Assembly: GCF_053078305.1 (NCBI RefSeq)
Contig: NZ_CP166879.1
Direction: 5' to 3' (one strand)
DNA: 64,000 nucleotides
Below the pieces are notes generated by a model that was not told the origin of the DNA, searched no databases, and saw only the letters and a list, made by a program, of their open reading frames with translations. The position numbers and the translations under genes are program-made. This document shows positions 28,551-56,603 of this stretch, piece after piece (within the stretch, counting starts at the first letter, position 1; every line of letters begins with the position of its first letter).

Positions 28551-28964
28551 GTGAAACGACAGTTATCTGTAATGACCGTCATGGTGGCGGTATTTATTCT
28601 GTCCGGCTGCTCGACATCGAAAGAGGAGCTTCTGCCTCCGGGTGAACAGAGTATGCTGGAGATCTGGCAGGGGAAAGGAAGCGGAGGACATTCGCGGCAC
28701 ATGACAGCGGCCAGGGACACCCTGCGGCGTCCGCTGACAATGCCGGAGCAGCAGGCAGATGCGCACGGAGCCATAAGCTACAGCCGGACACAGGAAAGTG
28801 AGATCAGTCAGCAGTTTCCGCGGCTGCCCAATCCTGACATGGTGATGTATGTTTTTCCGCATCTGGCTTCCGGTACGTCACCGGTTCCGGGGTACAGCAC
28901 AGTATTTCCTTTTTACAGCCGGACGCAGTATGCCATGCCGGGTGAACGAACGGAGGCGTTGTGA
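28551..28964 (+). CDS. conjugative lipoprotein
   Basis: Signal peptide with lipobox LSGC. Confidence 0.55.
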   Translation: MKRQLSVMTVMVAVFILSGCSTSKEELLPPGEQSMLEIWQGKGSGGHSRHMTAARDTLRRPLTMPEQQADAHGAISYSRTQESEISQQFPRLPNPDMVMYVFPHLASGTSPVPGYSTVFPFYSRTQYAMPGERTEAL

Positions 28965-31798
28965 TGCGATTTTCCCTGTTTACAGACACAAAAAAACGGG
29001 TTTCTTCCCCGGTGTCGCAGCATGACGGAGAAGCGGTATCTCCGGATATGAAAGAAAGAGTGGACCCTCAGGTACGAAAGCCACTGTCAAGGCCGGGGAA
29101 GATGACCCGACAGGATGAGACGAAGGTTTACCATGCCTGTCCGTCGGTGATTGATTTTCTGCCATGGGTGGAATATCTGGACGAAGAGCAGTGCCTGCTG
29201 CTGGATGATGGGGTGTCGGTTGGTGCCGTGTATGAGGTGAGTCCGGCTGCTACGGAAGGGCGGACCGCAGAGCGTCTGGAGCAAATCCGGGATACGGTGG
29301 AGGATGCGCTGCAGGACAGTTTTGATGAATATGACTCACATCCCTGGGTGGTGCAGTTCTTCTGTCAGGATGAAAACGACGTGGACACGTATGTTGACCA
29401 GCTCAGGGGGTACGTGAAACCTCATGCAGAAGGCTCCTCATTTACGGAGGCCTGGCTGAGGGAGATGGAGCGCCATCTGAAGGGGATTGCCCGACCGGAA
29501 GGTCTGTTCAGGGATACGCTGGTCACAGGTCAGCCATGGCGTGGTCAGCAGCGGCGCACGAGGATGGTGATTTACCGGTGGATCGGGAAAAACAACCACG
29601 ATCCGATGCCGCCGGTGGCAATGCTGAACCAGGTCTGTTCGCGGGTCGTGGGGGCGCTGGGTGGCGCAGGCGTCCGCTGTACACGGATGAACGGGCAGCA
29701 GGTGCATGGCTGGCTGCTGAGGCTGTTCAATCCCCGGCCGGAATGGGTGGACAGGGATATTCTGTACCGTATGGCATCCCGTGCAGAACCGCAGGAGACA
29801 CCGGAGGGAATGATGCCGGTGATGACCGATTTTGCAGAAAGCCTCTGGTTCACCCCACCGGTATCTGATCCGGAAAACGGCGTGTGGTGGCTGGACGGGC
29901 TTCCGCATGCCGCTGTTGTGGTGGAGAAACTGCGCACACCACCGGAGCCGGGAACCATCACAGGGGAACAGGCCCGGGGCGAAAAGACAGTGAATGCCCT
30001 GATGGACACCTTTCCGGAGGGAACGGTGCTGTGTATGACAATTGTGGTCCAGCCACAGGACACACTGGAAGAGCGCTTCACGAGGTTGTCGAAAAATGCG
30101 GTCGGGGAGAACAGTGAATCCCTGCGTGCCCGGGAGGATGTGGCGACCGTGAAGAAATATCTGGGAAACCGGCACAAGCTCTACCGTGCCGGGATCACGT
30201 TTCTGCTGCGGGCAGAGGATATGGAGAGTCTGAAGCGCAGACGGGTTGAACTGACGACGGTGCTGCTGGGCGCGGGCTTACAGCCAGTGCGCCCGGAGTT
30301 TGATGTCGGACCGCTGAACAGCTGGCTGCGCGCGCTGCCCATGTGTTTTGATCCTGATACGGATAAAAAACAGTGGTACACGCGTCTGATGTGGGTACAG
30401 CATCTGGCAGGGCTCCTGCCGGTGACGGGAAGGGAAACCGGTACGGGGCATCCCGGATTCAGTTTCTTTAACCGTGGCGGGGATGTGCTGACCTTTGATC
30501 CGCTGAACAAGCTGGACCGGACCCAGAATGCACATCTGCTGCTTTTCGGGCCTACCGGAGCCGGTAAATCGGCCACGCTGTGTGGTTCGTTGTCGCAGAT
30601 AATGGCAGTTCATCGTCCCCGTCTGTTTATCGCTGAGGCCGGGAACTCGTTTGGTCTGCTGGCGGATTATTTTGAGAGTCTCGGGCTTTCGGTTAACAAA
30701 ATCAGTGTCAAACCGGGAACGGGGGTGTGTCTTCCTCCATTTGCGGATGCTCATCAACTGGTGGAGCAGGGAGAGACGCTGCAGAGTGTGGATGAGCATT
30801 CACTGCCCGATCTTGATGAAGATGAGGGGGATGAAGAGGCAGAGAAACGCGACATTCTGGGGGAGATGGAAATCTCTGCCCGCATGATGATCACCGGAGG
30901 GGATCCGAAAGAAGAAGCAGCGCTCAAACGTGCGGACAGGGCGATGATCCGTGAGGCACTGCTGATGGCCACGCACACCACGTACCGGGAGGGGCGTCAG
31001 ATGCTGCCGGTGGATCTGCAGAGTGCGTTGTGGGAAATTTCGCGGGACACTCAGCGTAATGATGTTCGCCGGGCTAAAGCCGCAGAGATGGCAGAGTCGC
31101 TGGGGATGTTCACCCAGCCGGGCAGTTTTGAAGCGGAGCTGTTTAACCGGGAAGGAAAACTGTGGCCGGAAGCGGATGTGACCCTGATTGATCTGGGGCA
31201 TCTTGCCCGTGAAGGTTATGAAGCCCAGATGGCACTGACCATGGTGTCAATGACCAATATGATTAACAACATTGCCGAGCGCGATCAGTATCTGGGACGG
31301 GATATTCTGTTTGTGGTGGATGAGGCGCATATCGTGACGGTAAACCCGCTTTTGTCCCCGTATATGACCAAAGTGGTGAAAATGTGGCGCAAGCTGGGGG
31401 CCTGGCTGTGGCTGGCCACGCAGAACCTGAAGGATTATCCGGATGTTTCAGAGAAGATGCTGAATATGGCAGAGTGGTGGGTGTGCCTGACCATGCCGCC
31501 GGAGGAAGTGAACAATATTGCCCGTTTTAAATCCCTGACGGAGGAGCAGAAGGCGGTACTGCTGTCAGCCAGTAAACTGTCCGGCTGCTATACGGAGGGG
31601 GTGGTACTGGCGAAGCGCACAGAAGCGTTGTTCCGGGTTGTGCCACCGAGTCTGTATCTGGCTCTGGGGATGACGGAGAAAGAAGAGAAGGCTGAACGCC
31701 GCGCCCTGATGAAGGTGCACCAGTGCAGCGAACTGGAAGCAGCGTTTCATGTGGCACGAAAGCTGGACGGGCTACGTGGTCTGGCTGGCAGGGAGTGA
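28961..31798 (+). CDS. traC: conjugative transfer ATPase (VirB4/TraC-like, ICE class)
   Basis: 945-aa ORF; Walker A LLLFGPTGAGKSAT and Walker B-like region FVVDEAH. Confidence 0.85.
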   Translation: MMRFSLFTDTKKRVSSPVSQHDGEAVSPDMKERVDPQVRKPLSRPGKMTRQDETKVYHACPSVIDFLPWVEYLDEEQCLLLDDGVSVGAVYEVSPAATEGRTAERLEQIRDTVEDALQDSFDEYDSHPWVVQFFCQDENDVDTYVDQLRGYVKPHAEGSSFTEAWLREMERHLKGIARPEGLFRDTLVTGQPWRGQQRRTRMVIYRWIGKNNHDPMPPVAMLNQVCSRVVGALGGAGVRCTRMNGQQVHGWLLRLFNPRPEWVDRDILYRMASRAEPQETPEGMMPVMTDFAESLWFTPPVSDPENGVWWLDGLPHAAVVVEKLRTPPEPGTITGEQARGEKTVNALMDTFPEGTVLCMTIVVQPQDTLEERFTRLSKNAVGENSESLRAREDVATVKKYLGNRHKLYRAGITFLLRAEDMESLKRRRVELTTVLLGAGLQPVRPEFDVGPLNSWLRALPMCFDPDTDKKQWYTRLMWVQHLAGLLPVTGRETGTGHPGFSFFNRGGDVLTFDPLNKLDRTQNAHLLLFGPTGAGKSATLCGSLSQIMAVHRPRLFIAEAGNSFGLLADYFESLGLSVNKISVKPGTGVCLPPFADAHQLVEQGETLQSVDEHSLPDLDEDEGDEEAEKRDILGEMEISARMMITGGDPKEEAALKRADRAMIREALLMATHTTYREGRQMLPVDLQSALWEISRDTQRNDVRRAKAAEMAESLGMFTQPGSFEAELFNREGKLWPEADVTLIDLGHLAREGYEAQMALTMVSMTNMINNIAERDQYLGRDILFVVDEAHIVTVNPLLSPYMTKVVKMWRKLGAWLWLATQNLKDYPDVSEKMLNMAEWWVCLTMPPEEVNNIARFKSLTEEQKAVLLSASKLSGCYTEGVVLAKRTEALFRVVPPSLYLALGMTEKEEKAERRALMKVHQCSELEAAFHVARKLDGLRGLAGRE

Positions 31799-31802
31799 GA
31801 CT

Positions 31803-32180
31803 ATGCTGTGTCTGAAGTATCCGGAACCGGAAGTGGTGTCTGCTGTTCACCCCGCCGGAAGTGTGTTTGTTCTGCCGCCACAGGGTGCGCCGGGGATAAG
31901 TTGCACCACACGGGATAATCTTGAACGTCTTCGCGGGCATCTGGCGGCGCAACTGGGGCGGGTGGAGTGTATCCGTTGCCAGCCACAGAGGGTGGGTCTG
32001 AACAGCAGTGTGGCGGTGATGCTGGAAGGTCAGCGGGGTCAGTATGTGCATATTCTGCTTACTGTGAGTGGGCATGAGAGCTGGCCGTCGGAGGAGGAGT
32101 ATATTCATCCCCGCTGGTATATATCAGTGACTGATGCGGCGGATTTGTTCTATCTGCTGTTGTGGCTGGGAGAGGGGTGA
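31803..32180 (+). CDS. hypothetical ICE protein
   Basis: ORF track 31749..32180; ATG 31803 follows GGGAG RBS just after the ATPase stop. Confidence 0.45.
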   Translation: MLCLKYPEPEVVSAVHPAGSVFVLPPQGAPGISCTTRDNLERLRGHLAAQLGRVECIRCQPQRVGLNSSVAVMLEGQRGQYVHILLTVSGHESWPSEEEYIHPRWYISVTDAADLFYLLLWLGEG

Positions 32181-32181
32181 T

Positions 32182-32397
32182 ATGAGGAGCGATATCGATT
32201 TTCCGGGACCACTGTATCCATCGCTGTCAGATCAAATTGCCAGTGAACCTGTGCTGTTTCTGGCGGGAGCTGTGGGTGTGGCTGTGTTTTCATGGGTGCT
32301 TGCGAATTTTTCATGGATGCTTACGAATGTACTGGCCCGGATGCTGTCAGGGTTGTACTCCCGTGTCAGGAGGAGGGTAAAGAACTCTGAAAAATAG
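32182..32397 (+). CDS. small membrane protein
   Basis: ORF track 32134..32397; ATG 32182 after GGGAGAGGGG RBS. Confidence 0.4.
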   Translation: MRSDIDFPGPLYPSLSDQIASEPVLFLAGAVGVAVFSWVLANFSWMLTNVLARMLSGLYSRVRRRVKNSEK

Positions 32398-32566
32398 CGG
32401 GAGAGAGGTGCTGCCCTGATGCCTTCGTTGTATTCTGCGACGCTGTTGGTGCCCGTATTTTGTGCGGGTACCGTACAGAATCACCGCATGAGCCATTGCT
32501 GAGACGCTCACTTTTTTTCGCATGCATTACCGGAGTGATGGCTCAGCCGGTGATTTTGGTGTTGAG

Positions 32567-32767
32567 ATGAGAGCCAGTATGGGAAAGCGATATAAAATAA
32601 CTGCGACAATAATCAAACCAGGCAATATGCCGGTTCAGTGGCTGCGTTACCAGGATGAAAAAATGACTCAGGATGAATGTGAAAAACTGTTTGCGCCCGC
32701 AAAAGAGCCGGGACGGTATATTGGCGTCAGGGTGGAGGACTTCCGGTGTGAAGTGGTGAAGGCCTGA
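32567..32767 (+). CDS. small hypothetical protein
   Basis: ORF track 32522..32767; start uncertain. Confidence 0.3.
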   Translation: MRASMGKRYKITATIIKPGNMPVQWLRYQDEKMTQDECEKLFAPAKEPGRYIGVRVEDFRCEVVKA

Positions 32768-33087
32768 GTATGAAAATAAAAACCTCCGGCGGAGTCGGAG
32801 GGGGCAAAAACAGATAGTCCCGGAGTGTATCTGTGTAAATGGTGTTATTGGTATAATAATGGTGGTAAAGACCACGGGAGAATTTATTCATTTTATTCGT
32901 CATGAAATCAACGGTAATAGTGTGTTTCTGTGACGGGAATAAAAAAATACAGCACCGCCGATGACCCGGTGCTGAAAACAGGTTAAATGTAGTGGGCACA
33001 TTTCCGGTAATATCAGGAACAGCATGTTATGGTTATAAAAGCATATACCGGGAGTGTGCCCTGGCACTGTGATGTTCTGGTTGTCTT

Positions 33088-33116
33088 TTGACCATTTTCC
33101 GGGGACGAAATATAAG
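33088..33116 (+). promoter_or_regulatory. candidate sigma70 promoter (TTGACC, 17-bp spacer, TATAAG)
   Basis: Near-consensus -35 and -10 hexamers with 17-bp spacing, about 35 bp upstream of the lipoprotein start. Confidence 0.4.
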
Positions 33117-33151
33117 CTGTTCTGCGTTAACACTTAATAATGAGAGATTGT

Positions 33152-33601
33152 ATGCTGAAAAAAACAATTCTGGCGTTATGTATTTCCGCACCATTTCTGG
33201 TTGCGGGCTGTGATGATGCGACAAAGGAGAATGTAAGTAAGAAGGCGGCAGATATAAAGGAAGCTGCGCAGACTCAACTCAGTGATGTGAAGGATGCCGC
33301 GGAGGAAGTGAAAATGCAGGCTGTCGGAAAGGTGGCAGAGGTTTCTGAAGCGGCTCAGTCCGGGCTCAGCGAGGTGAAGGATGCCGTGGAGGAAGTGAAA
33401 ACACAGGCAGCCGGAAAGGTGGCAGAGGTCTCTGAAGCGGCTCAGTCCGGGCTCAGCGAGGTGAAGGATGCCGTGGAGGAAGTAAAAACACAGGCAGCCA
33501 GAAAGGTGGCAGAGGTCTCTGAAGCGACTCAGTCCGGTCTCAGTGATGTGAAGGATACCGCTCCTGAAAAGGGGGCTGAAATATCCGTAACGGAGGAGTA
33601 A
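33152..33601 (+). CDS. lipoprotein with tandem internal repeats
   Basis: ORF track 33140..33601; ATG 33152 after GAGAG RBS; lipobox LVAGC. Three tandem copies of an about 20-aa (60-bp) unit AEVSEAAQSGLSEVKDAVEEVKTQAAGKV. Confidence 0.6.
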   Translation: MLKKTILALCISAPFLVAGCDDATKENVSKKAADIKEAAQTQLSDVKDAAEEVKMQAVGKVAEVSEAAQSGLSEVKDAVEEVKTQAAGKVAEVSEAAQSGLSEVKDAVEEVKTQAARKVAEVSEATQSGLSDVKDTAPEKGAEISVTEE

Positions 33602-33705
33602 AAGAGCGCCGTCGGTGCAGTTTTTTTCAGCACCCGGTGACACGGAATTTTATATACGGGGCATGTCTGTCTCTTTAATAAATCAGCATATTTACCGGAT
33701 ATCCG

Positions 33706-34425
33706 ATGCCCTGTACCTGCGCTGTCATTATGGCTCTCAAACAGACAATGCTTTGTCTGGAGCACAGGAACTCTGTCATACCTGCCGGCACAATGCTTCT
33801 GATTGCCGGGCATCTGCGCCCTGCTTTTCAGGCTCATACCGGACGTTTCCTTATCGCTGACCTCAGTGAGGAGGTGGTGAGGCGGTATCTGCGGTTCTGC
33901 ACGCCATTATCCGGTATGGCAGTCAGCCCGTCGTCTTTGCTTTTACAGATCCGGCCACAGATGTCCGTGCTGGCGGAATGTCTGATCAGACAACTTATTA
34001 CAGATGAACCATCGCCGGTGTACTTCAGGGATGCGGTGGCTTTTTCCAGTCTGGCGCTGTTTGAGGAACATCCGGATTTCCATGCCCTGCTCACGGGGTG
34101 TATCCGGAGCTGCACTGTCCGGGTGAAGAATATTATCAGTGCTGATTTGTCCCGTCCATGGATGCTGGGTGAAGTGGCCAGTCTGTTATATATAAGTGAG
34201 AGTTTACTGAAGAAAAAGCTTCAGGAAGAGCTGACGACCTTCAGTGAGCTTCTTCTGAAAGAGAGAATGCAGTATGCCGTTCAGCTTTTGTCTGCGGGAG
34301 AAAACCGTATTTCCCGGGTGGCAGAGTTGTGTGGCTATGCCAGTGCTTCTTATTTTATTTCTGTGTTCAGGCGTTATTATAGTATTACCCCGAATCAGTG
34401 GCTTCCTGTGATGCAACCGGATTAA
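33706..34425 (+). CDS. AraC-family transcriptional regulator
   Basis: C-terminal AraC-type HTH signature (...SRVAELCGYASASYFISVFRRYYSITPNQW); start position uncertain. Confidence 0.7.
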   Translation: MPCTCAVIMALKQTMLCLEHRNSVIPAGTMLLIAGHLRPAFQAHTGRFLIADLSEEVVRRYLRFCTPLSGMAVSPSSLLLQIRPQMSVLAECLIRQLITDEPSPVYFRDAVAFSSLALFEEHPDFHALLTGCIRSCTVRVKNIISADLSRPWMLGEVASLLYISESLLKKKLQEELTTFSELLLKERMQYAVQLLSAGENRISRVAELCGYASASYFISVFRRYYSITPNQWLPVMQPD

Positions 34426-34560
34426 TTTGATTCAGATGCAGAGTGTGCGTTATTCAGAGGAAGAGGCTTAATTTTTATCATCCGGTTTTGAATTTATTGC
34501 TGATTGTCCCTTTGCCTTTGCGCACGCTGTCAGATACCAGTTGTCTGACGGAGTCGCATC

Positions 34561-34956
34561 ATGTACCGACTGTTACTGTATTCCTTCCTGATACTACCGG
34601 TGGCAGCATCTGCCGGTACAACAATTTATACCGATTCGCACCAGCGCCCCATGAACCCGCCAGCAGGTGTTCGTGTTGTCCTGCTTGATGCTCCTGAGCA
34701 GACGCAGGATACATTTTTCGGGGTACTTCCCGCAGAGCCTGCAGAAGCATCTGCCCGTGTCATGGAACGGATGCAGTCGCCTGAATGGCAGTCGTTTCAG
34801 GCAGGGCTTGCTGAACACTACCGTGCATTAGCACATGCCTGGTCCCTTGGACTGAAAAAATATCCGGCTGTGGTTTTTGATGACAGTGAAGTGGTCTACG
34901 GAACCACAGACGTGGTGCTGGCAGAACAACTGCGTACAGGGGGAGGGCAGCCATGA
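34561..34956 (+). CDS. periplasmic ICE transfer-region protein
   Basis: 131-aa ORF with signal peptide, followed by overlapping genes. Confidence 0.55.
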   Translation: MYRLLLYSFLILPVAASAGTTIYTDSHQRPMNPPAGVRVVLLDAPEQTQDTFFGVLPAEPAEASARVMERMQSPEWQSFQAGLAEHYRALAHAWSLGLKKYPAVVFDDSEVVYGTTDVVLAEQLRTGGGQP

Positions 34957-37714: not shown

Positions 37715-39233
37715 ATGACCACAAATAACTATCTGGAATATTTTCTGACTCTGCTGGGCTGGGTGGTGAATAACGGTCTGTGGAATGTGTTGATCAGCAC
37801 AGGACTGTTTGCCCTGCCACTGGCATTCAGGATCATCGGGATCTGGCTGAAAGTCAGGGAAGAAGGTGCGGATGAGGGAAACAAAGGGATGCTTTCCCTG
37901 CCGCGTATTGAGCATGTTCTCTATGGTGCTTTTTTTGTGATGATATCCTGCTGTGTTCCTCTGGTACAGGTGACGCTGGATACGCTGTCATTCGATAAAT
38001 CCAGGGCACAGACCTGTGGGGTATGGACACCTGAAGAGCCCGGAGAGACGGGGTACAGTGGGGTGATCAGCAGTATAGGGGATCAGACTGCTGCAGCCCC
38101 GGTATGGTGGGTGGTGGTTCATAAATTGTCGAAAGGTGTCACCCAGGCGGCAGTGGCTTCGATTCCGTGCCGGCCTGATTTGCGCCAGTTGCGTTTTGAG
38201 ATCCAGCGAACGTTTATAGAAAACAGGGCACTTGCTGATGAGCTGCAGGACTTTATGAACGACTGTTATTCACTGGCACTGTATGTGGAAACAGCGTGAT
38301 CAGGGGCAGAGTAAAGATAAAAAAGTGCTTGATGATATCTCCTGGATAGGGAGCGCCACATTCATGCAGGGGGATTACGGGACGCTGCAGTCAAAGATGC
38401 CGCGGGCTGCGTTCCCGTGGAATACAGCACGTGACAGCGGACGACCGGATACGGGGCGGGGAGGCTATCCGACATGCCGGGAGTGGTGGAGTGACAGTAG
38501 TGTGGGGCTGAAAAAACGGGTCATGGAGGAGGTCAGTGACCATTACTGGTTACGTCTGTCAGCTGCAATGAAGATGATTGGCAGTAGTCAGGTGGATTAT
38601 AAGGAGGAGGTGATCAAGCGTCTGGTGAGTCCGGCAAACCTGACGCTCTCTCAGGGGGGAGAGGTGTATCGTGGCTATGGTGGCAATGCAGATATGACGA
38701 CTATGAATGCGGTGGCCCGGATTGCGGGAACGGCGGGCAGTGCGGTAGCAGCACTGGGTGCGTTTCCGGCACTGGATGCAATGCGGCAGGCACTGCCGAT
38801 GGTACAGTCGATAATACTGATGGCGATTTACATCATGATACCGCTGATTCTGGCGTTTGCGGCATATGAACTGTCGACGTTAATCACACTGACGTTTGTG
38901 GTGTTTGCGGTACACTTTCTGACGTTCTGGTGGGAGCTTGCACGGTGGCTTGACAGCTGGATGCTGACGGCGCTGTACAGTTCGGATACACATACCCGGT
39001 TCAATATGATGGGATTCCAGAACACATCGGATGATCTGATAATGAATCTGGTGATGGGGACAATGTTTCTCGTCTTGCCGGCAGTGTGGCTGGGTGCGTT
39101 GTCCTGGGCTGGGGTGAATATGGGCTCTGTGGTTGGTGATACTTTTGGAAAAAGTACAAGTCATACCTTTCAAGCTGCATCAAAAAGTGGTGATCTTGCA
39201 TCTAGTGGAATTTCAAAAGGTATGAATAAATAA
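37715..39233 (+). pseudogene. traG: TraG-like conjugal transfer protein (TraG_N-type), apparently split by a frameshift near 38283-38299
   Basis: Two overlapping ORFs in different frames (37715..38299 and 38283..39233) together give about 510 aa with multiple TM helices typical of TraG_N. Could be a genuine frameshift or a sequencing error. Confidence 0.6.
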
Positions 39234-39965: not shown

Positions 39966-40105
39966 TGAAAGTGCTTAATTCTCTGCGAACGGCCAAAGAG
40001 CGACCTCCTGACTGTCAGATAGTGAAGCGCAAAGGGCGATTGTATGTAATTTGTAAATCCAATCCTCGTTTTAAGGCTGTTCAGGGACGCAAAAAAAAGC
40101 GTTGA
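39965..40105 (+). CDS. ykgO: 50S ribosomal protein L36 paralog
   Basis: 46-aa [49 protein letters not shown], start overlapping ykgM stop. Below the ORF-track size cutoff. Confidence 0.85.
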
Positions 40106-40588
40106 TTCCGAAGCTTGTACATAGACTGTGAGCAGTGCTCAGACATGATTTATGTCGGTACATTAGCATTGATGTGTGTCGGCATTAATTAATTTTTGTG
40201 GATGCGTTCTATCATTCATATCTTCCTGTGCTTTGCTGCTTGATGGGAAATCCTCTTCCAATATCACGGCGATGTTCACTTTTTGCGTAAGTGGACATCG
40301 CTGCGTATTTTTTGTTAGTTGGGGTTTGAGGCTCAGTGGAACAATAACCGCCGTTAAGCGGTCATTTTAAATAGCCAAAAATCAACCCAAAAATCAACCA
40401 GCCAATTTACATCGTGAATCTGCGTTCTTGGCTATCTGTTTTGGGGGGGCCAAGTTGGCTTTAGTCATCCTGGCCGTTTGCGGAACAAAAGACGTTGTTG
40501 ATCTCAACAGATTGATTTACCTGTTATTGACCATTCAATTGAACCGCTTAACCGCCTTTTGAGTTCCACTACTCCCCAAACCCCTAGT

Positions 40589-41683
40589 TTAGTTTTTAGT
40601 TTCCAACGGTGGTAATTTTTCAAGTGTCAGTAGTTCCTGCCCCTTTACCCGACGGCATTGGGAAGCTGCATCCTGAAGTTTTTCGCGAACGTTATTATCA
40701 TAGTCGGGATCCAATAGTTGGTATTGAAGACTATCTTTGTATGATTGAATGATATTTAGTGGACAGATAAGGCGTATATCACCGAGTGAATAAAGTTTTA
40801 CTGCCTTAAGTAAATAGTATTTTTCATCTGAAGAGCGAGCACTCTGCCAGGCTGAGTTTCTGAAATATTCAGCAGGATATGAGGTGGTCGGTATTCCATA
40901 AACATGAGGAGTCAAGTCCATGATTCCTGATATTTTAAGGAAAATAGTTAGTATTAGAGCTGGAACCATATGCACAAACGTAAAAATGAAGGCTAATATT
41001 CCAGCCATGATTCCGCCAGTCACAATTACCTGATTTAGCAAGCTGGTGCGGGTTCTTAACCTGAGGAAAACAATACAGGGAATAAGTGAAAAAATAATCA
41101 GAAGAATTGATAATACTATAACACTCAACACCTGCCAGAACTCGTTTATTCCTTCCGGGAATTCCAACGTATGAAGAAATAACTCAAGAGGAATAATATA
41201 TATGCAGGCTGCGTGGGTGAATAGCGTTGACTGTACAATATGCATGGAAAGAAACTTTTTGATCTGCTTCCACTTACCCTCTGTGCTTATCTGTCTATAA
41301 GTAATAGAGCCATTGAGACACAGAGAAAGTATAAAACTGCAAATCCAGATAATGCTTAACTGAAGTAGCACATATTGTTCAATTTCTTTTCCTGCGTTGT
41401 ACATGAGGAAAAAATAACCAAAAAATATCAGTGTTGATAATAGCGAGGTCAGAAGAACGATTTTGATGTTGTTTTCCGTCAGTTCATTCCGGAAATCACT
41501 TTCCCCTGGATAATTGGAAATATAGAATCCTGCCACTAGTGAGGGCATAAATAACGCCATGCAAAATAGGAGTACGCTGATACAAGCAAAGACCATCAGA
41601 TAACTGAACAATGATGAAAAAGAAATACTGTCAAAAAAAAGTCCTGTTTGTCCAATACGCGCAAGATGTGACCATATAAACAA
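40589..41683 (-). CDS. polytopic membrane protein of unknown function (low GC)
   Basis: 364-aa ORF with about 8 predicted TM helices and a C-terminal soluble tail; AT-rich codon usage unlike surrounding DNA. Confidence 0.5.
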   Translation of the reverse strand: MFIWSHLARIGQTGLFFDSISFSSLFSYLMVFACISVLLFCMALFMPSLVAGFYISNYPGESDFRNELTENNIKIVLLTSLLSTLIFFGYFFLMYNAGKEIEQYVLLQLSIIWICSFILSLCLNGSITYRQISTEGKWKQIKKFLSMHIVQSTLFTHAACIYIIPLELFLHTLEFPEGINEFWQVLSVIVLSILLIIFSLIPCIVFLRLRTRTSLLNQVIVTGGIMAGILAFIFTFVHMVPALILTIFLKISGIMDLTPHVYGIPTTSYPAEYFRNSAWQSARSSDEKYYLLKAVKLYSLGDIRLICPLNIIQSYKDSLQYQLLDPDYDNNVREKLQDAASQCRRVKGQELLTLEKLPPLETKN

Positions 41684-42026
41684 TGCTACAATAGAAGTTG
41701 ACGCGATCGGTGTAAGGATTGTTAAAAACCAAGCACATAGTTTTATAAAATGTTTGTTTACTCTGTAATTTTCTATATTTTAGTGTCCATTCAAAGTTTG
41801 ACATATGATCTAGCTAATGACTCCATTTTTGGGCATTGCTTACCAACATACCTCTTATGTGTATTACTGTGAAGGAGAACGATGAATAGCGACTATTCAC
41901 GTGGATCTCCACAACAACCATCAATATTCCAGCCATTATCATTCCCGGTATCCTTACCGGCATTACCTGTAGAATCGGTTATTGTTGTTGCCCTATAACA
42001 CACTTTTGTGGCTATAACGTTTATAG

Positions 42027-42521
42027 CTATCGACAAAAAACCATATTAATTCTTTTGGAAAAAAGAAAATAAGGTATCCATATAACAACACCAAATATTC
42101 CACTCACTAATAATCTGATATTATCTGAATCCAGCTGTACGTCAAAAAGAATAGCCGGTAATAAAGTAAGATAGAGAGCAATAATCAGTCCTGTTGCATA
42201 ATAAGCGATCATGGCTTTTCGAGTTCCTTTTTTGCGTCTGAAAAACAACCACGTTGCATAAAGGGAAACAATGAATCCACATATCAGCAACACAAATGCC
42301 CCCATAGCGTAATAAGATAAAAAGCCAGTTTCATTGAAATAATTGAATGCAGTTATGGTAAAACTGTAAAGTTCAATAGTACTACCAATAACACCCAAGA
42401 TAAGTCCCAGAGCAGGAAGATATAATAGTCCATTAATTTTACTTAACTCTTCTCTTTCACAGGCATCACACAATCCCGACTCTTTGTTTGCTTCTGACAT
42501 TTTACATTTTATACATTCCAT
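42027..42521 (-). CDS. zinc-ribbon plus four-TM membrane protein of unknown function (low GC)
   Basis: N-terminal CxxC...CxxC (MECIKCK...CDACE) followed by four hydrophobic helices. Confidence 0.5.
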   Translation of the reverse strand: MECIKCKMSEANKESGLCDACEREELSKINGLLYLPALGLILGVIGSTIELYSFTITAFNYFNETGFLSYYAMGAFVLLICGFIVSLYATWLFFRRKKGTRKAMIAYYATGLIIALYLTLLPAILFDVQLDSDNIRLLVSGIFGVVIWIPYFLFSKRINMVFCR

Positions 42522-42606
42522 TTTTTATTCCATTATTCATTGCGTTACGATAATGTTTAGTTTTTTAAACATCCCCCACCACATGTATGGGGATTGTTGC
42601 AAATCT

Positions 42607-42862
42607 CACTTAGGATCTGATGGTGTTTTCTTACGGGAGTTAAATTTATCTATTAAATTAAATACTATTGTAGCTAATGTTATTGCTGTTCCTGCTATAC
42701 AACCAAAAACGATAGCTCTTTTAAACTGATTCACTGGAAAATAAAACCCATCACCTTTAAAAAATAAAAGATTGAAACCGCCCCTCCCAGAAATAGTAAC
42801 ATGACTATAGATGATAAACAGCTATAAAGGAACAATATCACATAACTATATAGTTGTTTCAT
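42607..42862 (-). pseudogene. degenerate orphan cdiI-like immunity gene (frameshifted paralog of 43100..43348)
   Basis: DNA is homologous to cdiI; translation from the ATG at 42862 stops after about 42 codons, and the conserved C-terminal part (...IVFGCIAGTAITLATIVFNLIDKFNSRKK) continues in another frame. Confidence 0.5.
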
Positions 42863-43103
42863 TTTTTCTTATCCTCTGACGAACCTTTCGGTTTATTGAG
42901 TTATTGGCTCCTTCAGGTAACTCACCTTTGGCAAGTTTATCCAGTCCTGCCTGCTTCTGTTCCGAGGTGAGATTATTGGCATCAGCATACTGATTCCATG
43001 AGGAAACCGCCTGACCATAACTCACCATTCCTGATGGAAGACTGAGCGAGTTATTCTCAACAACAATCCTAACCGCAAAGGTTGGGATTGTTGTTAATCT
43101 CAC
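42846..43103 (-). CDS. orphan CdiA C-terminal fragment (VENN-containing, truncated)
   Basis: 85-aa ORF containing VENNSLS and a segment (SWNQYADANNLTSEQKQAGLDKLAKG) paralogous to the start of the main CdiA-CT; lacks the Gly-rich toxin core. Confidence 0.5.
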   Translation of the reverse strand: MRLTTIPTFAVRIVVENNSLSLPSGMVSYGQAVSSWNQYADANNLTSEQKQAGLDKLAKGELPEGANNSINRKVRQRIRKNETTI

Positions 43104-43348
43104 TCAGGATCTGATGGAGGTTTTTTACGAGAATTAAACTTATCGATCAGATTAAAAACTATCGCTGCTAGTGTTATCGATGTACCTGCTATGCACCCAA
43201 ACACAATAACTCTTATCATTTGGTGGGTCGGGAAAAAAAAGAATCCTTTTGTTAGGTAAATAAATAAAGCTCCTCCCCCCATCAAAAGAAATCCACTGAT
43301 GATACAAAAGAGGCATGCATATATGAACAATACAATGTAAGCAATCAT
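43100..43348 (-). CDS. cdiI: CdiI immunity protein (small two-TM membrane protein)
   Basis: 82-aa ORF whose start overlaps the cdiA stop (ATGA); two hydrophobic helices. Confidence 0.65.
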   Translation of the reverse strand: MIAYIVLFIYACLFCIISGFLLMGGGALFIYLTKGFFFFPTHQMIRVIVFGCIAGTSITLAAIVFNLIDKFNSRKKPPSDPE

Positions 43349-46300
43349 TTCCCCTCCTCCTTCTTCGCGCTAGAAGAGAACTGATTATTACTACTTGCTT
43401 CTTTTATATATCCACCAAGAAATTCACTACCAAAAGATCCTGTCGCATCAAATATAAATCCCGGAAACTCTTTCCCAGTAACTGAGTTTACTATTCCGGG
43501 AGCATATACTCCAAATGCTCCACCCAATCCGGCCCCGGCAGCAGCCCCTCCAATAGAGCCTGTATTTGGACCATCGGTAAAGAATGCACCACCCATCGCA
43601 ATTCCGACGTTTTGTCCGACAGTTCTCCCCGGCGCAAGCATACCCGCAATGCCTGAACTGGCACTGCTTTTCCAGTCCCAGTTTTTGTTTTCATTACCTG
43701 GCTGGCTTAAATCAAACCACTGGTAACTTCCATTGGCTATCTCCGCGACGACTCCACCACTGACCATTTTACCGACCGAAGCAGCAGGCCCCAGATACCA
43801 TGCCCCGGCAATCATTACACCATCCTGATATCCATCCACGATCACTTTCGTGATATTGGTGCTGTCCGGCATATCACCTTTCGCTATCTTATCCAGTCCA
43901 GCCTGTGTTTGTTCCGGTGTCAGATTATTGTCCACCGCGTACTTGTTCCATGATGTAGCCGCAGCAGCATTGCTTTCAAAACCATCACCGAAGCTGAGCG
44001 CATTATTCTCAACCGTCGTCTTACCTGACTGTGCTCCGGCTACCGCTGAAGCTCCCGAATCTCCCACCAGACCACCGGCCAGGCCGGCAGCAACCGTTGC
44101 CAGTGTCGAGACCGTCTGCTTCTCTGTCCCGCTCAGTTCACTCACCGGCTTACCGTACATCTGTGTGGCTATCATTCCCACCACCTCGCCGGTGGCTGCG
44201 CCTGCGGCACCAGCCAGAGCATTCTTACCCTGTGCCAGAGACAGGGCTGCATTCACTACTGCATGAGCTGCCACACGTCCCGCACCGTCCGGGGTGGTCT
44301 GTTTGATAATTTCAGCAATATACGGTGCTGCACCACCTGCCAGGGCTGCACTCAGATTACCGCCGGCCAGCCCCTGTACTGCTGCCGTTGCGGCCTGTAT
44401 CGCCTGCTGGTATTTGCCTCCCGTTCCAAAACCTGAGGCCGCCATACCGTTATTGTAGGCCCGCTGCGCCACATCCTGTTCCGTGAACGGTTTTCCTGCT
44501 GCCTCAAGCTCCTCACGGGCCTGATTCAGTGCTGCCGGGTCCCGCTTCGCTTTCTCACCAGCTATCTGGCCTTCCGTTCTGGCAATATCTGCCACCTGGT
44601 TACCAATCTCACCAATGAGCTGCGCCTGCTGCAGTCGCTGCTGCTCTTTTTCCCTGTCAAAGATGGGGGACAGCGTCTGGTTTGCATGTGCTGCGTCACG
44701 GTTCAGGTCTGCCACATCCTGTTTCTGGCTCTGCGTATCCCGGATGGTGATATTCCCGGCAGACACAGCCGACTGAGTGGTGCTTTCTGCATGGCCTTCA
44801 TGATTTGCACCAACCAGCAGATTGTTGGCCATATTTCCCGCGAACTGGCCACCGATGCTGCCGCCAGTGCTGATACCCACGCTCTGGTGTTCAACTTTGT
44901 AATCAGCACGATTTTCGATATCACGGAAGCCCAGTGTACCGGTATCCAGCCGGTTTTTATCTGCCGTTGCCGTGGACGCAATCACCGCACCGTTCAGTTG
45001 CGTATGCTGTCCGGTGGTGACATCAAACCCGCCCCTGCCGGCAAAAATCCCCGTCTGCTCCTGCACACTGTCATAGTTACTGTGCATTTTATCCCGGCTG
45101 AGGCTCACACTCGCCGAACCGCTCATGGACCCGAAAGTGAAGCTGCCTCCGGCACTGGCATTCTGCTGCTTACTGTCATAACGGTCACTGTCCTGCTCAC
45201 TGGTCAGTGTCAGATGACGACCGGCATCCACTTTCACCGTTTCACCGCCGGCCTGCACGCCGGTAAGCGTGGTGTCCCGCCCGCTGATAATGGTCAGGCG
45301 GTTTCCCGCATCCACCGTGGTTTCTGTATGGGTGGTACCGTTGCCTTTTTCACTGCCCTTACCCTGGTTTGCGCTGGCTGAAACACTGATACCCCAGCCT
45401 CCGGCCCCCACACCGATACCGACACCCACACTGCCGCCACTGGATGAGTTCTTTCCTTCCAGCTTTGACGTGTTTTCTGCTGATACCAGATTCACGTCAC
45501 GGTTTGCCTGCAGCAGAACGTTGTTCCCTGCCTTTATCTGACTGCCCTGTATCGTCAGGTCACCATCCACGTCCTTCACGCCGGAGCCGGTGGCCTGAAT
45601 ACTGAGGTTATTACCTGCGGTCAGGGCGCTGTTCTTCGCCACCGTCTGCTCTGACTGCTGTTCTGATTTCGAAGACTGGCTGCCGTAAGAGAGGCTGATA
45701 CCCACGGCATTGTTATTCTCTTTCTGGTTGCCCTGTGCTTCTGCCAGTCGTCCGGCCTGCACGGCCTGAGCCCCCGAGAGCGCGGCCTTCACCCCCTGCA
45801 GGGCTTCAAGCCGGCTGTTTCCGGCAGATTTCGCCGCCTGCACGGTCTCCACCGTCGTGTTCAGGGCGCTGCCCACTGTGCCGGACAGGGCAAGCGTCAG
45901 ACCGGAGGTTTTCTGCTCCACCGAATGCGTCTGCACATGCCGGTCTGTGACGGCGCTAATGCTGACCTCCTTACCACTGAGTGCCATGTCCCTGCCGGCA
46001 ATCAGGTCAGCACTGTTGGCGCTCAGCCGGTTACCTGCCTGAAGGGAAACATCACCGTGAACACTCCCCACCGTGCTGCCTTTCTGTGTGCTGTCTGTTG
46101 CGGTGTCCGTGACTTTCAGACTCTGGCTGCCCACACTGAATCCCACACCTCCGGAGCTCATCAGCCCGGATTTTTTCTCCTGTTTCAGGTGTGTTTCACG
46201 GTTGCTTTCTGTCAGCGTGCCGATACTCAGGTCATTTCCGGCAGCCAGGGAGACACGGTTATCCCCGGCCACACTGCTGCCCGTGACGTTCAGATTATGT

Positions 46301-52290: not shown

Positions 52291-52842
52291 TCTGATAAAC
52301 CTGACTTATCTCTCCGGCACATCCACAGCAAGCGGGTGCTGCACACGCCACTGGCGCGCCTCTTCACGACTGACCTGTGCACCCCGGAAATTCATCACCC
52401 GTAACCCGGTCTGCTGCCCACGGTGGTACAGCGAACGCCAGCACAGACGGGGAAAAATATCCTGCCGGACAAGACGACTCATATCCGGAGTGTGTCCAAA
52501 AGGGGCAACCCAGTCACAGACCCACATCCGGTCGCCGCTGTTCCAGTCCGACTGAGGCATGAGAATTGCCGGCTGCGTAAGATAACGCGCCTCTGCCTCC
52601 GGGCTGAGCCAGGCCTGGCTCATGAAGAAAACCGGTCGCCCCTGCTCTGTTGCCACCACATACTGTCGGTGCTTAATCACCGGCAGCTGCAGGTCCGGCA
52701 GGGTATGCAGTGGCGCATCACGATGCAGGGGGGAGTGCATCCACAACCAGACGGCCGCCCCCAGGACTTCCGCCTCATTGACCGGCTCACCGGAATACAG
52801 GGGACTCAGAACGTCATATTTCCCGTTACGCATGAAACTTTC

Positions 52843-54582
52843 TCAGAAATCCCGGAACAGATTAAAACCGGCTGTCACATCACTCGTCATAAAACCCGCC
52901 GGCTTTGAAAACGGACGACCGATGAAAACGTCATAATCCGTACTGAACAGTTGCCCCCTCAGCCCCACAACACCACCGGCCAGATGACGTCCCACCAGAT
53001 ATTCACTGCCGGCTCCCCCCACCTCGCCGTAATCCATTCCCAGATATAACGCCTGCTCCGGCAGTGGCGTACGCCAGGCCAGGTCGTTGCGGATATACCA
53101 GCCGTTACTGGCATTCAGCGTTCGCTCCCCGTCAAAACCACGAACCGTCCAGCGGTTACCGATGGCAAACTGTTCCTGTGGGGTCAGCGGGGTATTGCTC
53201 AGCTGGCGCTGATACCGGAAGGAATAACTGAAGGGCTGCTCTGCCAGTGTAAAGGGCAGATTAAAGGATGCATTCATCTGCAGGATCTTACTGAGCGCCG
53301 TTGCCTCACCGAAGATTTCCTCCGGTGCCGGCTGTGCACCAAACCAGCGGGTTCCCCGTTGCCAGCTGACACCAGCATCCAGTGTGGCCTGAGAAATATA
53401 ATGACGGTGCTGCAGCCCAAGTCGCCAGGCCGCTGTCTGCCGGCGCTGCACCTGGATTTCCGTATCATTAATGTAGTTACGCGACCTGCGGGCCTGAACA
53501 TCGTAAGTCAGCACCGTTTTCTGCGTCCCGTTACGATGCAGTACCCGGCTCAGCTGCATGCCCAGATTCTGACTCTCGCCACTGTACTGGTAATCCTCAA
53601 CCGCACCAGCTACCGTCTGATGGTAATCGTAATCACTGGCGGTGACGGAAAACTGCCAGTAACCGAAAGGCACAGAGTAATGGGCCGTGTAGTTTTTACT
53701 GCCCTTACCCCCGTAATGTGGAAAATTATGGGTGGCAGAAACATACAGCAGGTCACTCAGGGAAAAAGGATTATCCAGAGAAAATGTTATACCACCGAGA
53801 TAACGCCCTGTGCTGCGGGTACCTGAATCATCAAGCGAAAACCCCAGTCGCCAGTATTTATCCTGTTTACGGGTAATAAGAATATCACTTTCCCCTGGCT
53901 GCTCACCGGGCACAATTTCCATATCAGCCTGCACACCCGGCAGTCGTTGCATATTCTCCAGCCCCTGCTCAATGTCCCGTAAATCCAGCAGAGAACCTTC
54001 GTGTGCCGGGAATGAGGAATACAACTGAATATAGTCATCACTGTCCGGTGTCAGACGCACATGTCGCACAACACCGGGAATAACAACCAGCCGGAGGATA
54101 CCGCTTTTTAAATCCTGCGAAGGTGCCAGAACACGGGTGGTGACATAACCATGATCGACAAGACGGTTCTGCAATGTACTCATCAGCAGATTAATTCCTT
54201 TCGCCCCCAGGCAATGCCCGACCGCCCCGTTGGCGATTTTTTGTAAAGGCAGCCAGTGTGGTAACGCATCAGCCCCCTTCAGTTCCGTCTGTTTAATCTG
54301 AAAACAGGGCGTTTCAACAGGAAAATTAATCTTATGGGCAAAAGAGCCAGGTGCAGAAAGGCGAACATCAGGGGCTGAAGGCGTCAGTTGTTGCTCAAGG
54401 GCTTCCTGACGCTGCTGCTGAATGATAAATGTATCCTCTCCACTACGCCGGATATCCGCGGCCTGAAGAGATAAAGGCGATAATAAAACAGACATCAGTG
54501 TCAGTGATAAAATGAACGGACAGCGCCGGAATAAGCTTTGTTCCTCAGCCCTCTCGTTCCTGCAACATAATTTTCCAGCCAA
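52843..54582 (-). CDS. cdiB: CdiB, TpsB-family outer-membrane transporter
   Basis: 579-aa ORF directly upstream of cdiA on the same strand; signal peptide, POTRA-like region and C-terminal beta-barrel ending ...FNLFRDF. Start may instead be at an internal Met (about 54495). Confidence 0.85.
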
Positions 54583-56444: not shown

Positions 56445-56603
56445 TTATCTCAGAATAAACATTGATGAATGGTAATAACAGGGACTGTTAATACTGTCCC
56501 TGTTATTTTTTCTGCAGACTGTTTTCTGTTCTTCCTGGTTATGTTCTGAGTGATGATGATTGACGCCTTTTATACGCTCTGATATGCTCAGAATGCATTA
56601 TCT

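Follow-up and report, generated by a model that had tools for sequence, protein, structure and literature searches.

An accessory patch in the T4SS cluster of an Escherichia coli ICE carrying a predicted repeat lipoprotein and an AraC-family regulator of the YdeO/GadW/AppY/PatE clade

Introduction

A lipoprotein gene and an AraC-family regulator gene lie next to each other inside the conjugative gene cluster of an ICE in the 64,000-nucleotide stretch of contig NZ_CP166879.1 (assembly GCF_053078305.1) analysed here, hereafter the window. Their position raises the question of whether they belong to the transfer machinery, form a functional pair of their own, or are separately acquired cargo. An earlier note on this DNA had described them as a cargo pair that might act in stress or host interaction. 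The homology boundaries, the distribution and the alleles of the two genes were compared among E. coli genomes and related ICEs, and their products with known proteins.

The variable slot

The following features delimit the region:
32177..34469, no strand assigned: variable cargo slot, defined by blastn against the related ICEs L004, L005 and L006
34470..34560, plus strand: leader of the TIGR03757 gene, part of the conserved backbone, at which related ICEs become homologous again

The host element is an ICE of the SPI-7/PAPI-1/ICEclc type of E. coli. In the blastn comparisons, backbone homology to the three related E. coli ICEs (72-79% nucleotide identity) ended at 32168-32176 and was back at 34468-34470, enclosing a slot of 2.3 kb within the mating-pair-formation cluster of the T4SS, with the conjugative ATPase block on one side and the TIGR03757/TraU-like block on the other. 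The same slot was about 300 bp long and without an annotated gene in the ICEs of GF4 and SF-088, and it was occupied by iha in the ICE of 2015C-3121, so that neither the lipoprotein gene nor the AraC gene was found at this position in these E. coli relatives. Because the homology breaks at the slot edges and the contents differ among related ICEs, the slot genes are cargo; neither is a core T4SS component, and the earlier note was right to place them outside the conserved transfer backbone. The comparisons identify an intergenic hotspot for cargo among the T4SS genes of these related ICEs.

Among 5426 complete E. coli genomes, both genes were present in all 18 with a backbone of at least 98.8% identity, most of them from human clinical and bovine sources. 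In none of these genomes was the ICE located on a plasmid, and PLSDB plasmids gave neither DNA matches nor tblastn matches to the lipoprotein. Strain OkiPb01692 carried two ICE copies with a lipoprotein gene in each. No RNA family was found in the cargo region by Rfam, either with gathering thresholds over the whole window or with E-value thresholds over 32300-34700, and no tRNA was found within the window. PADLOC defence models gave only compositional matches to the lipoprotein (E >= 1e-3) and none to the AraC and DUF1187 proteins. As a separate observation, a 2-bp deletion splits the traG-like gene of the window's own ICE.

Mosaic structure of the slot

The left part of the slot contained two features upstream of the lipoprotein gene:
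32363..32767, plus strand: module A, a DUF1187 small protein with about 215 bp of upstream DNA, from Pfam, PHROG and nucleotide homologues
32768..33151, plus strand: AT-rich spacer (GC 40-47%) that opens module B, ahead of the lipoprotein gene

The DUF1187 CDS (32579-32767, 62 aa) matched the Pfam DUF1187 profile at 1.9e-17 and phrog_5753 at 3.7e-17. Over 100 other E. coli genomes and plasmids carried homologues of module A at about 83% nucleotide identity, and the homology ended exactly at the DUF1187 stop codon (32767). The spacer that follows was confined to the 18 ICE-carrying genomes and had no Rfam match; GC content was 40-43% over 32800-33200 as compared with 52-60% in the flanks. On the right side, a 1.7-kb contig (L011) carried an AraC homologue 73% identical to that of the window, without a neighbouring lipoprotein gene. 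DNA homology with this contig began at 33622, just past the terminator-like hairpin of the lipoprotein gene, and covered 33622-34500; the contig itself had no match in complete E. coli genomes.

Because the DUF1187 homology stops at 32767 and L011 matches only 33622-34500, the homology boundaries resolve the slot into a mosaic of three separately derived, moron-like modules, namely the DUF1187 module, the AT-rich spacer with the lipoprotein gene, and the AraC gene. By their separate boundaries and separate distributions, the lipoprotein and AraC genes do not make up one evolutionary unit. Both are accessory, as the earlier description of a cargo pair implied, but the pairing does not hold in the evolutionary sense, and the DUF1187 gene had been omitted from the patch.

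The lipoprotein gene

The lipoprotein gene and its associated elements are as follows:
33088..33116, plus strand: candidate sigma-70-like promoter TTGACC-17-TATAAG, read directly, 10/12 match
33152..33601, plus strand: orphan lipoprotein gene, 149 aa, an ORF annotated as the same CDS by RefSeq
33158..33164, plus strand: A7 tract in codons 3-5, from the alignment and allele table
33278..33560, plus strand: tandem repeat of 87 bp (29 aa) in 3.3 copies, amphipathic helix, found by TRF
33571..33575, plus strand: G5 tract near the 3' end of the gene, from allele comparison
33606..33627, plus strand: terminator-like hairpin (GCGCC-GTC-GGTGC, then T7) closing module B, from a program scan and folding

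The candidate promoter consists of TTGACC (33088-33093), a 17-nt spacer and TATAAG (33111-33116). It lies 36 nt ahead of the ATG (33152) and, at 10/12, was the best sigma-70-like site on either strand over about 500 bp. Its -10 hexamer has a final G in place of the highly conserved T, and because this -7T is missing the site was omitted from the program's own promoter scan. Dinucleotide shuffling of the 382-bp spacer produced matches of at least 10/12 in 10% of cases, as against 2% when the last 90 bp alone were counted, and the candidate is only modestly better than chance. The site is therefore present and the best available, as had been noted, but "near-consensus" overstated it. Similarly, the AT-rich leader described upstream of the gene corresponds to a truly AT-rich region (32800-33200), but one that is mostly upstream DNA, with a predicted leader of only about 30 nt. 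A ribosome-binding site, GAGAG, was located at 33142-33146. An ATG at 33140 was considered as a longer start and dropped in favour of 33152 on ribosome-binding-site spacing and the RefSeq call. The hairpin downstream of the gene is weak (5-bp stem, -14.8 kcal/mol, z = -1.0), and the minus-strand terminator-like hairpins that were folded in the spacer were insignificant (z about 0 to -0.9). An antisense ORF at 33176-33643 (155 aa), without signals and without a family, was set aside as a by-product of the repeat.

The N-terminus reads directly as MLKK-TILALCISAPFL-VAG-C20 and fits PROSITE PS51257. The signal peptide and lipobox span 33152-33211, with the lipobox MLKKTILALCISAPFLVAG followed by C and the Cys20 codon at 33209-33211. 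The basic residues, the hydrophobic core, a lipobox of the form [LVI][ASTVI][GAS]C and a Cys within residues 15-35, as in bacterial lipoproteins, were all present, which agrees with the earlier reading of the ORF, and the product is predicted to be lipidated at Cys20. The mature N-terminus, C-D-D-A, has Asp at both +2 and +3. Since Asp at +2 acts as a LolCDE-avoidance signal for inner-membrane retention in Enterobacteria (PMC5727369, PMC6469965), the lipoprotein is predicted to be kept in the inner membrane through Asp+2/Asp+3.

The repeat (TRF score 461, 92% matches) had been described in the earlier note as three 60-bp units encoding 20 aa at about 33330-33540; the unit, copy number and extent given by TRF replace that description. 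Its amphipathic character was borne out by a hydrophobic moment that is maximal at 100 degrees per residue, with a hydrophobic spacing of 7+11+11. AF2 modelled residues 22-136 as one helix at a pLDDT of about 90, in a single-sequence model of a low-complexity protein for which the helix may be overstated; the predicted form is one helix of about 115 residues.

In a set of 1.84 billion representative proteins the lipoprotein had no relative other than E. coli alleles; beyond those alleles, searches of the word-indexed and the exhaustive kind yielded only compositional matches to long A/E/K/V-rich repeat proteins, and no curated family gave a significant match above its cut-off. PDB sequence and fold searches returned nothing meaningful, there being little information in a single helix. 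A weak likeness is seen to Ag473 (NMB1468) of Neisseria meningitidis, which is also a small, alanine-rich lipoprotein with tandem repeats and a mature part without aromatics (PMC3402496). However, the score against the Ag473 family (NCBIfam NF047840) was 39.4 bits against a cut-off of 100 bits, the Ag473 repeats are of 7 aa rather than 29 aa, and Ag473 is a surface lipoprotein whereas the ICE lipoprotein carries an inner-membrane retention signal; shared composition probably explains the likeness. Lpp, the Braun lipoprotein, which is lipid-anchored, periplasmic and dominated by one long helix, resembles the predicted form in anchor and helix, but it is an outer-membrane protein built on heptads. 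TrbK and TraT are, like the ICE lipoprotein, small lipoproteins encoded among transfer genes. In the Pfam and NCBIfam lists, the Lpp, TrbK and TraT families gave no sequence match to the ICE lipoprotein.

The regulator

33706..34425, plus strand: AraC/XylS-family regulator, 239 aa, YdeO/GadW/AppY/PatE clade, from Pfam, NCBIfam, PHROG and alignments

The downstream ORF, ending at 34425, had been called an AraC-type regulator, and both Pfam domains of its double HTH scored above cut-off (HTH_AraC, 54.7 bits, cut-off 26.6; HTH_18, 50.4 bits, cut-off 33.6). A regulatory domain occupies about residues 1-130, and the two-HTH DNA-binding domain about residues 135-232 (34108-34401). The start lies at 33706; in BLASTP, YdeO, GadW, AppY, ECs0287 and a phage protein align with the product from its first residue to about residue 230, and the RefSeq (PGAP) starts are too short, the corrected length of 239 aa replacing 210 and 154 aa. 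The NCBIfam YdeO match was full length (1.5e-36), and the best profile match was phrog_1450 (180 bits, 1.5e-52, residues 3-232). No sigma-70-like promoter was recognisable upstream of the gene in the scan, and no terminator-like site was found between it and the TIGR03757 leader, near which the program scan placed a promoter-like site, TTCAGA-17-TATCAT (34453-34481).

Over its full length the regulator was 37% identical to Sakai ECs0287, 37% to a Stx2k-phage protein, 33% to YdeO, 31% to GadW and 27% to AppY; GadX aligned in the DNA-binding domain only, at 44%. ECs0287, encoded on prophage Sp1 and presumed from that location to be PatE, represented PatE in the comparison, from which the PsrA and PsrB sequences were left out. 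It is likewise about 240 aa long, alignable from residue 1, and shares the N-terminal motif M-x-x-x-C-S-V-I as well as SESLLKKKL and S-SYF. The predicted recognition-helix motifs, SESLLKKKL in HTH1 and S-SYF in HTH2, are common to the clade, in columns invariant across nine members; the clade-invariant columns include C5, S164, S166, L167, K169 and L172, and position 226, otherwise an invariant Gly, is Ser in the allele of the window. With full-length homology that includes the N-terminal domain, together with M-x-x-x-C-S-V-I and SESLLKKKL, the alignments place the regulator as a new branch of the YdeO/GadW/AppY/PatE/Psr clade. Because its scores fall far below the equivalog cut-offs for YdeO (NF007407, 126.3 against 348 bits) and GadX (NF007432, 107.2 against 500 bits), it is a paralogue and not an orthologue of these proteins.

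YdeO, GadW and GadX are chromosomal and AppY lies on prophage DLP12 in K-12; the regulator is homologous to them, but its N-terminal domain is divergent, and for this reason its input signal probably differs from theirs. Judging from the identities of 27-37% and the scores below cut-off, its targets may differ as well. A scan of one genome per species with the AraC peptides found no relatives. In the AF2 model, Foldseek superposed the DNA-binding domain on GadX (3mkl) with an rmsd of 0.9-1.2 A. Rns, CsvR and ToxT, virulence regulators with solved structures, were also matched (E = 1e-11 to 1e-7), having, like the model, a beta-rich N-terminal domain and a double HTH. Nevertheless, identity to them was only 16-22%, the N-terminal domain of the regulator is shorter, the domain arrangement does not superpose (rmsd about 16 A overall), and there was no sign of a fatty-acid pocket. 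Literature searches with the RefSeq protein accessions, or for YdeO together with ICE, returned nothing.

Allelic variation

The earlier note had suggested comparing repeat copy number between strains, and it does vary: alleles with 1.3, 2.3 and 3.3 copies were found, differing by exact 87-bp units and in frame. An A6 in place of A7, which is a frameshift, occurred in four complete genomes and in a 21-member protein cluster, and G4 or G6 in place of G5 altered the C-terminal tail in some genomes. The full-length 149-aa ORF was present in 10 of 16 copies, and five more kept the signal peptide and all or most of the repeats. The 239-aa AraC ORF was intact in 14 of 16 copies, the other two being disrupted by a 34-bp deletion and by an IS600 insertion. 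The lipoprotein gene was intact where AraC was destroyed (O22:H8 strain 154 and OkiPb01692 copy 1), and AraC was intact where the lipoprotein start was frameshifted (A6 alleles). SNPs among AraC alleles were mostly non-synonymous. The AraC disruptions and the lipoprotein frameshift alleles suggest weak selection; over deeper divergence, a dN/dS of 0.29 against the 73% homologue, in both domains, points to purifying selection on the regulator.

Discussion

Based on these results, an accessory mosaic patch that contributes a regulator of the acid-resistance clade and an inner-membrane helical lipoprotein is, as a whole, a rather probable explanation of the locus. Previous studies showed that YdeO, GadW, GadX and AppY converge on gadE and the acid-fitness island (PMC10057817), and that PatE, PsrA and PsrB act on gadE and acid-resistance genes like other characterised members of the clade (PMC10877973). 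By analogy with these chromosomal and prophage relatives, the regulator would bind AT-rich promoters in the host acid-fitness island, those of gadE and hdeAB, and activate them; we infer that it most likely feeds into the host gadE/hdeAB acid-resistance regulon, and the ICE would thereby make its host more acid-resistant. It could, in addition, dampen type III secretion where the host is LEE-positive. The earlier suggestion of a stress or host-interaction module is consistent with membership of this acid-stress clade (PMC10057817, PMC10877973). The lipoprotein would be made from its own promoter-like site, with its own terminator-like hairpin. Anchored in the inner membrane, it would reach about 17 nm into the periplasm as a single amphipathic helix, acidic and about 115 residues long; every 29-residue repeat would lengthen it by about 4.4 nm, and the repeat number depends on the strain. 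Its most likely role would be that of a structural protein related to the envelope or to stress and dispensable for ICE transfer.

Alternatively, the two genes could be a regulator and its target, with AraC made by read-through from the lipoprotein promoter and activating that AT-rich, probably H-NS-silenced promoter, and the lipoprotein acting as its dedicated effector. This is loosely analogous to safA-ydeO or slp-dctR: in K-12, the gene immediately before ydeO is safA, whose product is a small membrane protein, and AppY directly activates the lipoprotein gene slp (PMC10057817). The genes also have the same orientation, 104 bp apart, with only the weak terminator between them and no promoter found for AraC, and they occur together in every carrier genome. 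Nevertheless, we regard a dedicated pair as unlikely. The 18 ICEs are near-identical, so that the co-occurrence is clonal and uninformative; the L011 homologue has no lipoprotein and its homology starts after the lipoprotein terminator; and either gene persists where the other is broken.

A further explanation, which seems quite improbable, is that an ICE lineage which is young and clonal still carries the lipoprotein ORF, and perhaps the regulator, as a remnant without function or one that can be dispensed with. The restriction of the lipoprotein to one ICE lineage in one species, the varying frameshift-prone A7 and G5 tracts, the two inactivated AraC copies with mostly non-synonymous allele SNPs, and the split traG-like gene would agree with decay. 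On the other hand, no expression or sorting signal is missing from the lipoprotein gene, which has a promoter-like site, a ribosome-binding site, a signal peptide, a lipobox and a terminator; its ORF or most of its repeats are kept in nearly all copies; and AraC is under purifying selection by its dN/dS and has a mostly intact ORF.

It is very unlikely that the genes serve the ICE itself, with the lipoprotein as an entry or surface-exclusion factor (cf. TrbK of IncP and TraT of F) and AraC controlling the downstream transfer genes (TIGR03757, TraU-like and others), since, although both lie co-directionally inside the T4SS cluster with no terminator-like site before the TIGR03757 leader, and exclusion proteins are known, such as TrbK, that are small lipoproteins with predicted inner-membrane retention, both genes are missing from related ICEs that share the T4SS gene set, TraT and TrbK are not among the Pfam/NCBIfam matches and no curated family is above cut-off, two ICE copies each with the lipoprotein gene coexist in OkiPb01692, against effective exclusion, and the relatives of the regulator are prophage-carried regulators of host physiology and not of transfer.

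The regulator has its closest parallels in PatE (Z0321), PsrA and PsrB of EHEC O157:H7, AraC-like regulators that are also mobile moron-type genes in pathogenic E. coli. These sit on lambdoid prophages, whereas the present regulator lies inside a T4SS cluster. To our knowledge, the mobile examples characterised so far (AppY, PatE and PsrA/B) are all prophage-borne. If the regulator acts on gadE/hdeAB, an ICE could reprogramme acid resistance, a trait tied to the low infectious dose, and in LEE-positive hosts type III secretion might be affected too.

More speculatively, and with little probability, the lipoprotein could be a length-tunable periplasmic rod, at 4.4 nm per repeat and with alleles of about 9, 13 and 17 nm, which alters the envelope or blocks a phage or rival conjugative pilus, with on/off or tail switching at A7/G5 and a YdeO-like regulator coupling expression to acid or host signals. 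If true, such an ICE-borne, repeat-variable envelope module would have no described counterpart. The hotspot in the T4SS cluster also accepts other cargo in this ICE family, as one relative has there the adhesin/siderophore-receptor gene iha, and the lipoprotein cleanly illustrates how a repeat protein restricted to one lineage can be polymorphic in copy number.

Cargo slot inside the T4SS cluster

The accessory genes studied here are surrounded by genes of an ICE of the SPI-7/PAPI-1/ICEclc type. Their layout in window coordinates is as follows.

Features of the cargo slot and its flanks
28961-31798: conjugative ATPase, upstream of the slot, where a small hypothetical gene also lies
32768-33151 (+): AT-rich stretch, GC 40-47% vs 52-60% in the flanks
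33088 (start of TTGACC) to 33116 (end of TATAAG) (+): promoter candidate TTGACC-17-TATAAG
33152-33601 (+): lipoprotein ORF, 149 aa, from ORF reading
33606-33627 (+): short hairpin followed by T7, from terminator scan and folding
33706-34425 (+): AraC-family ORF, 239 aa
34561-34956: TIGR03757 gene, downstream of the slot, followed by a TIGR03756/TraU-like gene and more transfer genes

A survey of 5426 complete E. coli genomes found DNA matching 32770-34425 at 98-99.6% identity in 18, most of them of human clinical or bovine origin. Every copy was chromosomal, and a search of a plasmid database returned none. The carriers are exactly the 18 genomes in which the ICE backbone is at least 98.8% identical. 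A related ICE of about 75% identity is present in 15 further genomes, and for three of these the backbone homology ends at window position ~32176 and restarts at ~34468-34470. The corresponding interval measures about 300 bp in GF4 and SF-088 and has no annotated genes, while in the ICE of 2015C-3121 (L006 4477-6567) iha, an adhesin/siderophore-receptor gene that here contains an internal stop, lies between the ATPase block and TIGR03757. Judged from these breakpoints and slot contents, 32177-34469 is a cargo hotspot within the T4SS cluster, and the presence of iha marks it as a recurrent one. The lipoprotein and AraC genes are absent from the slot in these three strains, in agreement with the earlier note, which had placed them outside the conserved transfer backbone. 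At 32134-32397 (+), an 87-aa ORF that is missing from the annotation and encodes a hydrophobic segment overlaps the end of the hypothetical gene behind the ATPase and the left edge of the slot; it matched no family in curated-family, PADLOC or phrog profiles.

Separate histories of the three modules

In sensitive blastn searches with 32177-33151 as query, homologues of about 83% identity to the DUF1187 gene and the DNA preceding it were found in >100 other genomes and plasmids, in unrelated contexts, and this homology stopped precisely at the DUF1187 stop codon (32767). The spacer and lipoprotein gene (32768-33621) are confined to this ICE lineage. For the AraC gene, a homologue of 73% identity, P0005, is carried on E. 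coli contig L011, whose DNA matches window 33622-34500 only and has no lipoprotein gene upstream of P0005. Based on these differing homology limits and distributions, three modules of separate history stand side by side, and the lipoprotein and AraC genes, previously described as a pair, are better regarded as parts of a mosaic. The slot was probably filled with independent, moron-type cargo genes. The regulator would then act, like PatE or YdeO, on acid-stress genes of the host, and the lipoprotein would be a helical repeat protein tethered to the inner membrane with some envelope role.

Expression signals

The lipoprotein ATG is preceded, at a distance of five bases, by a GAGAG ribosome-binding site. 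Upstream, TTGACC-17-TATAAG is the top sigma-70-like site within ~500 bp on both strands (10/12), and a reasonable candidate for the predicted promoter. The earlier note had called it near-consensus; the site is present and the best in the region, but its strength was overstated. The -10 hexamer does not end in the conserved T, which is why the promoter scan omits the site, and when the spacer was shuffled by dinucleotides an equally good match arose in 10% of cases (2% for the last 90 bp alone). The AT-rich DNA before the lipoprotein gene and the AraC-type gene after it are both present.

The search for sigma-70-like sites revealed no promoter upstream of the AraC gene, and by folding, the hairpin between the two genes is a weak terminator. 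For these reasons the two genes could possibly form a local operon of regulator and target. Their separate distributions, however, speak against this arrangement, and we regard it as unlikely. On the minus strand, two terminator-like hairpins are located in or beside the AT-rich spacer, at 32941-32975 (CAGCACCG...CGGTGCTG then T7) and 32783-32801 (CCTCCG...CGGAGG then T5AT4); their folds were non-significant against shuffles, and no minus-strand gene is evident ahead of them.

The AraC-family regulator

The regulator contains Pfam AraC domains above cut-offs. Its leading curated models were YdeO (1.5e-36, full length), followed by GadX, HilD and HilC, all scoring well under their equivalog cut-offs, and its top profile overall was the phage family phrog_1450 (180 bits). 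In pairwise alignments, which begin at residue 1, it is 37% identical to both Sakai ECs0287 (prophage Sp1, presumed PatE) and a Stx2k-phage protein, 33% to YdeO, 31% to GadW and 27% to AppY; identity to GadX is 44%, in the DNA-binding domain only. The start codons chosen in RefSeq/PGAP annotation, 33793 (210 aa) or one further downstream (154 aa), leave truncated N-termini at window 33706-33792 and in three compared loci (L001 21024, L017 2694, L026 1194; L017 is an ICE copy of OkiPb01692). The regulator and its relatives share an N-terminal M-x-x-x-C-S-V-I motif, and because this is common to the clade a 239-aa protein starting at 33706 is supported, as it also is by conservation in the 73% homologue. 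The motifs SESLLKKKL and S-SYF of the two HTH regions are conserved in nine clade members. The AlphaFold2 model built from the alignment of these nine sequences (pLDDT 85.5) resembles Rns, CsvR and ToxT as a whole, and the DNA-binding domain in it superposes on GadX (3mkl) with a deviation of about 1 A. Comparison with the 73% homologue gave a dN/dS of 0.29 for the whole gene, 0.32 for the N-terminal half and 0.25 for the DNA-binding domain, which shows that the gene is real and under constraint.

The location of relatives in lambdoid phages, between Q and the lysis genes, is that of morons. The Stx2k homologue (phage phiSTEC1575-Stx2k, L010 4001-4714) is full length and lies just upstream of tRNA genes and stx2AB; in other lambdoid phages, relatives lie beside the Blc and Bor lipoprotein morons. 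By sequence, the regulator is another mobile paralogue of the YdeO/PatE clade, here on an ICE. YdeO, GadW, GadX, AppY, PatE, PsrA and PsrB target gadE and acid-resistance genes, and the Psr proteins repress type III secretion as well (PMC10057817, PMC10877973). By analogy with these relatives, the ICE-borne regulator most likely acts on gadE and acid-resistance genes.

The repeat lipoprotein

The lipoprotein begins with MLKKTILALCISAPFLVAG|C, comprising two lysines, a hydrophobic core, a canonical lipobox and Cys20. The repeat had been given as 20 aa; Tandem Repeats Finder places it at 33278-33560 with a period of 87 bp (3.3 copies, 92% matches, score 461), i.e., a 29-aa unit, LSEVKDAVEEVKTQAAGKVAEVSEAAQSG. 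Hydrophobic residues in this unit are spaced 7+11+11, and the hydrophobic moment has a sharp maximum at 100 degrees per residue. The acidic mature protein (pI 4.5) is abundant in Ala, Glu, Val and Lys, and has no aromatic residues; single-sequence AlphaFold2 modelled residues 22-136 as one unbroken helix (pLDDT about 90). Cys20 is followed by Asp at +2 and +3, a LolCDE-avoidance signal (PMC5727369, PMC6469965), and retention in the inner membrane, on the periplasmic side, is predicted from it. Both a word-indexed search of 5.8 billion clusters and exhaustive HMMER against 1.84 billion representatives returned only E. coli alleles and compositional matches, and the matches to Ag473, apolipoprotein and YtxH were weak, all of them far under cut-offs. 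It thus appears as an orphan repeat lipoprotein.

Variation between strains

The comparison of repeat number between strains that the earlier note had proposed revealed that, of the 18 complete genomes, thirteen have 3.3 copies, one has 2.3 and four have 1.3 (from sequenced copies, else estimated from match length), and that their lengths differ by whole 87-bp units. In draft assemblies a 91-aa single-repeat form predominates, a count that is uncertain because short reads may collapse the repeat. The A7 tract in codons 3-5 of the lipoprotein gene is A6 in the four single-repeat genomes and a 21-member protein cluster, shifting the frame. Towards the 3' end, four genomes have G4 or G6 in place of a G5 tract, altering the C-terminal tail.

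Of the 16 locus copies compared, 14 have an intact 239-aa AraC ORF. The remaining two have lost it, through a 34-bp deletion in O22:H8 strain 154 and through an IS600 insertion in one of the two ICE copies (L016, L017) of the bovine strain OkiPb01692; this insertion lies at the 3' end of the lipoprotein gene, and the AraC ORF is cut to 133 aa. The other copy has an IS66 element directly 5' of DUF1187; the second copy in this strain also has 3.3 repeats. Codon 226 (34381-34383) encodes Ser in the window allele, vs Gly, part of a YYG-x-P motif, in all 13 other intact copies and every aligned family member; public data contain 52 contigs with the Ser226 allele.

The frameshift alleles would fit decay of the lipoprotein gene, and perhaps of the regulator gene too, as non-functional passengers, but the complete signal set of the lipoprotein and the dN/dS of the AraC gene make this improbable. 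A role in exclusion or transfer control is more doubtful still, since related ICEs lack both genes and two ICE copies reside together in OkiPb01692.

Other features of the window

The TraG_N-domain transfer gene (37715-39233, +) is split into ORFs 37715-38299 and 38283-39233, because 2 bp present in the intact gene of E. coli FHI_NMBU_10 are missing at ~38281; the deletion could make this ICE copy defective in transfer, or it could be an artefact of sequencing. A cargo block of ~15 kb (39973-55020), absent from the otherwise collinear FHI_NMBU_10 ICE, holds a two-partner secretion/contact-dependent inhibition pair (43345-54582, -), consisting of a 2981-aa CdiA-like exoprotein (ESPR, TPS, haemagglutinin repeats, PT-VENN) and a ShlB/CdiB-type transporter. 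Three STAXI RNA motifs (12360-12525, 56603-56768 and 58870-59035, +; 76-94 bits) and one EFASI motif (57268-57425, +; 53 bits) in other parts of the ICE exceed Rfam gathering thresholds. The window also encodes an IS66-family transposase (5613-7205, -), an Integrase_1-type integrase (57553-58470, +) and an ArdC-like anti-restriction/metallopeptidase protein (61959-63035, +).
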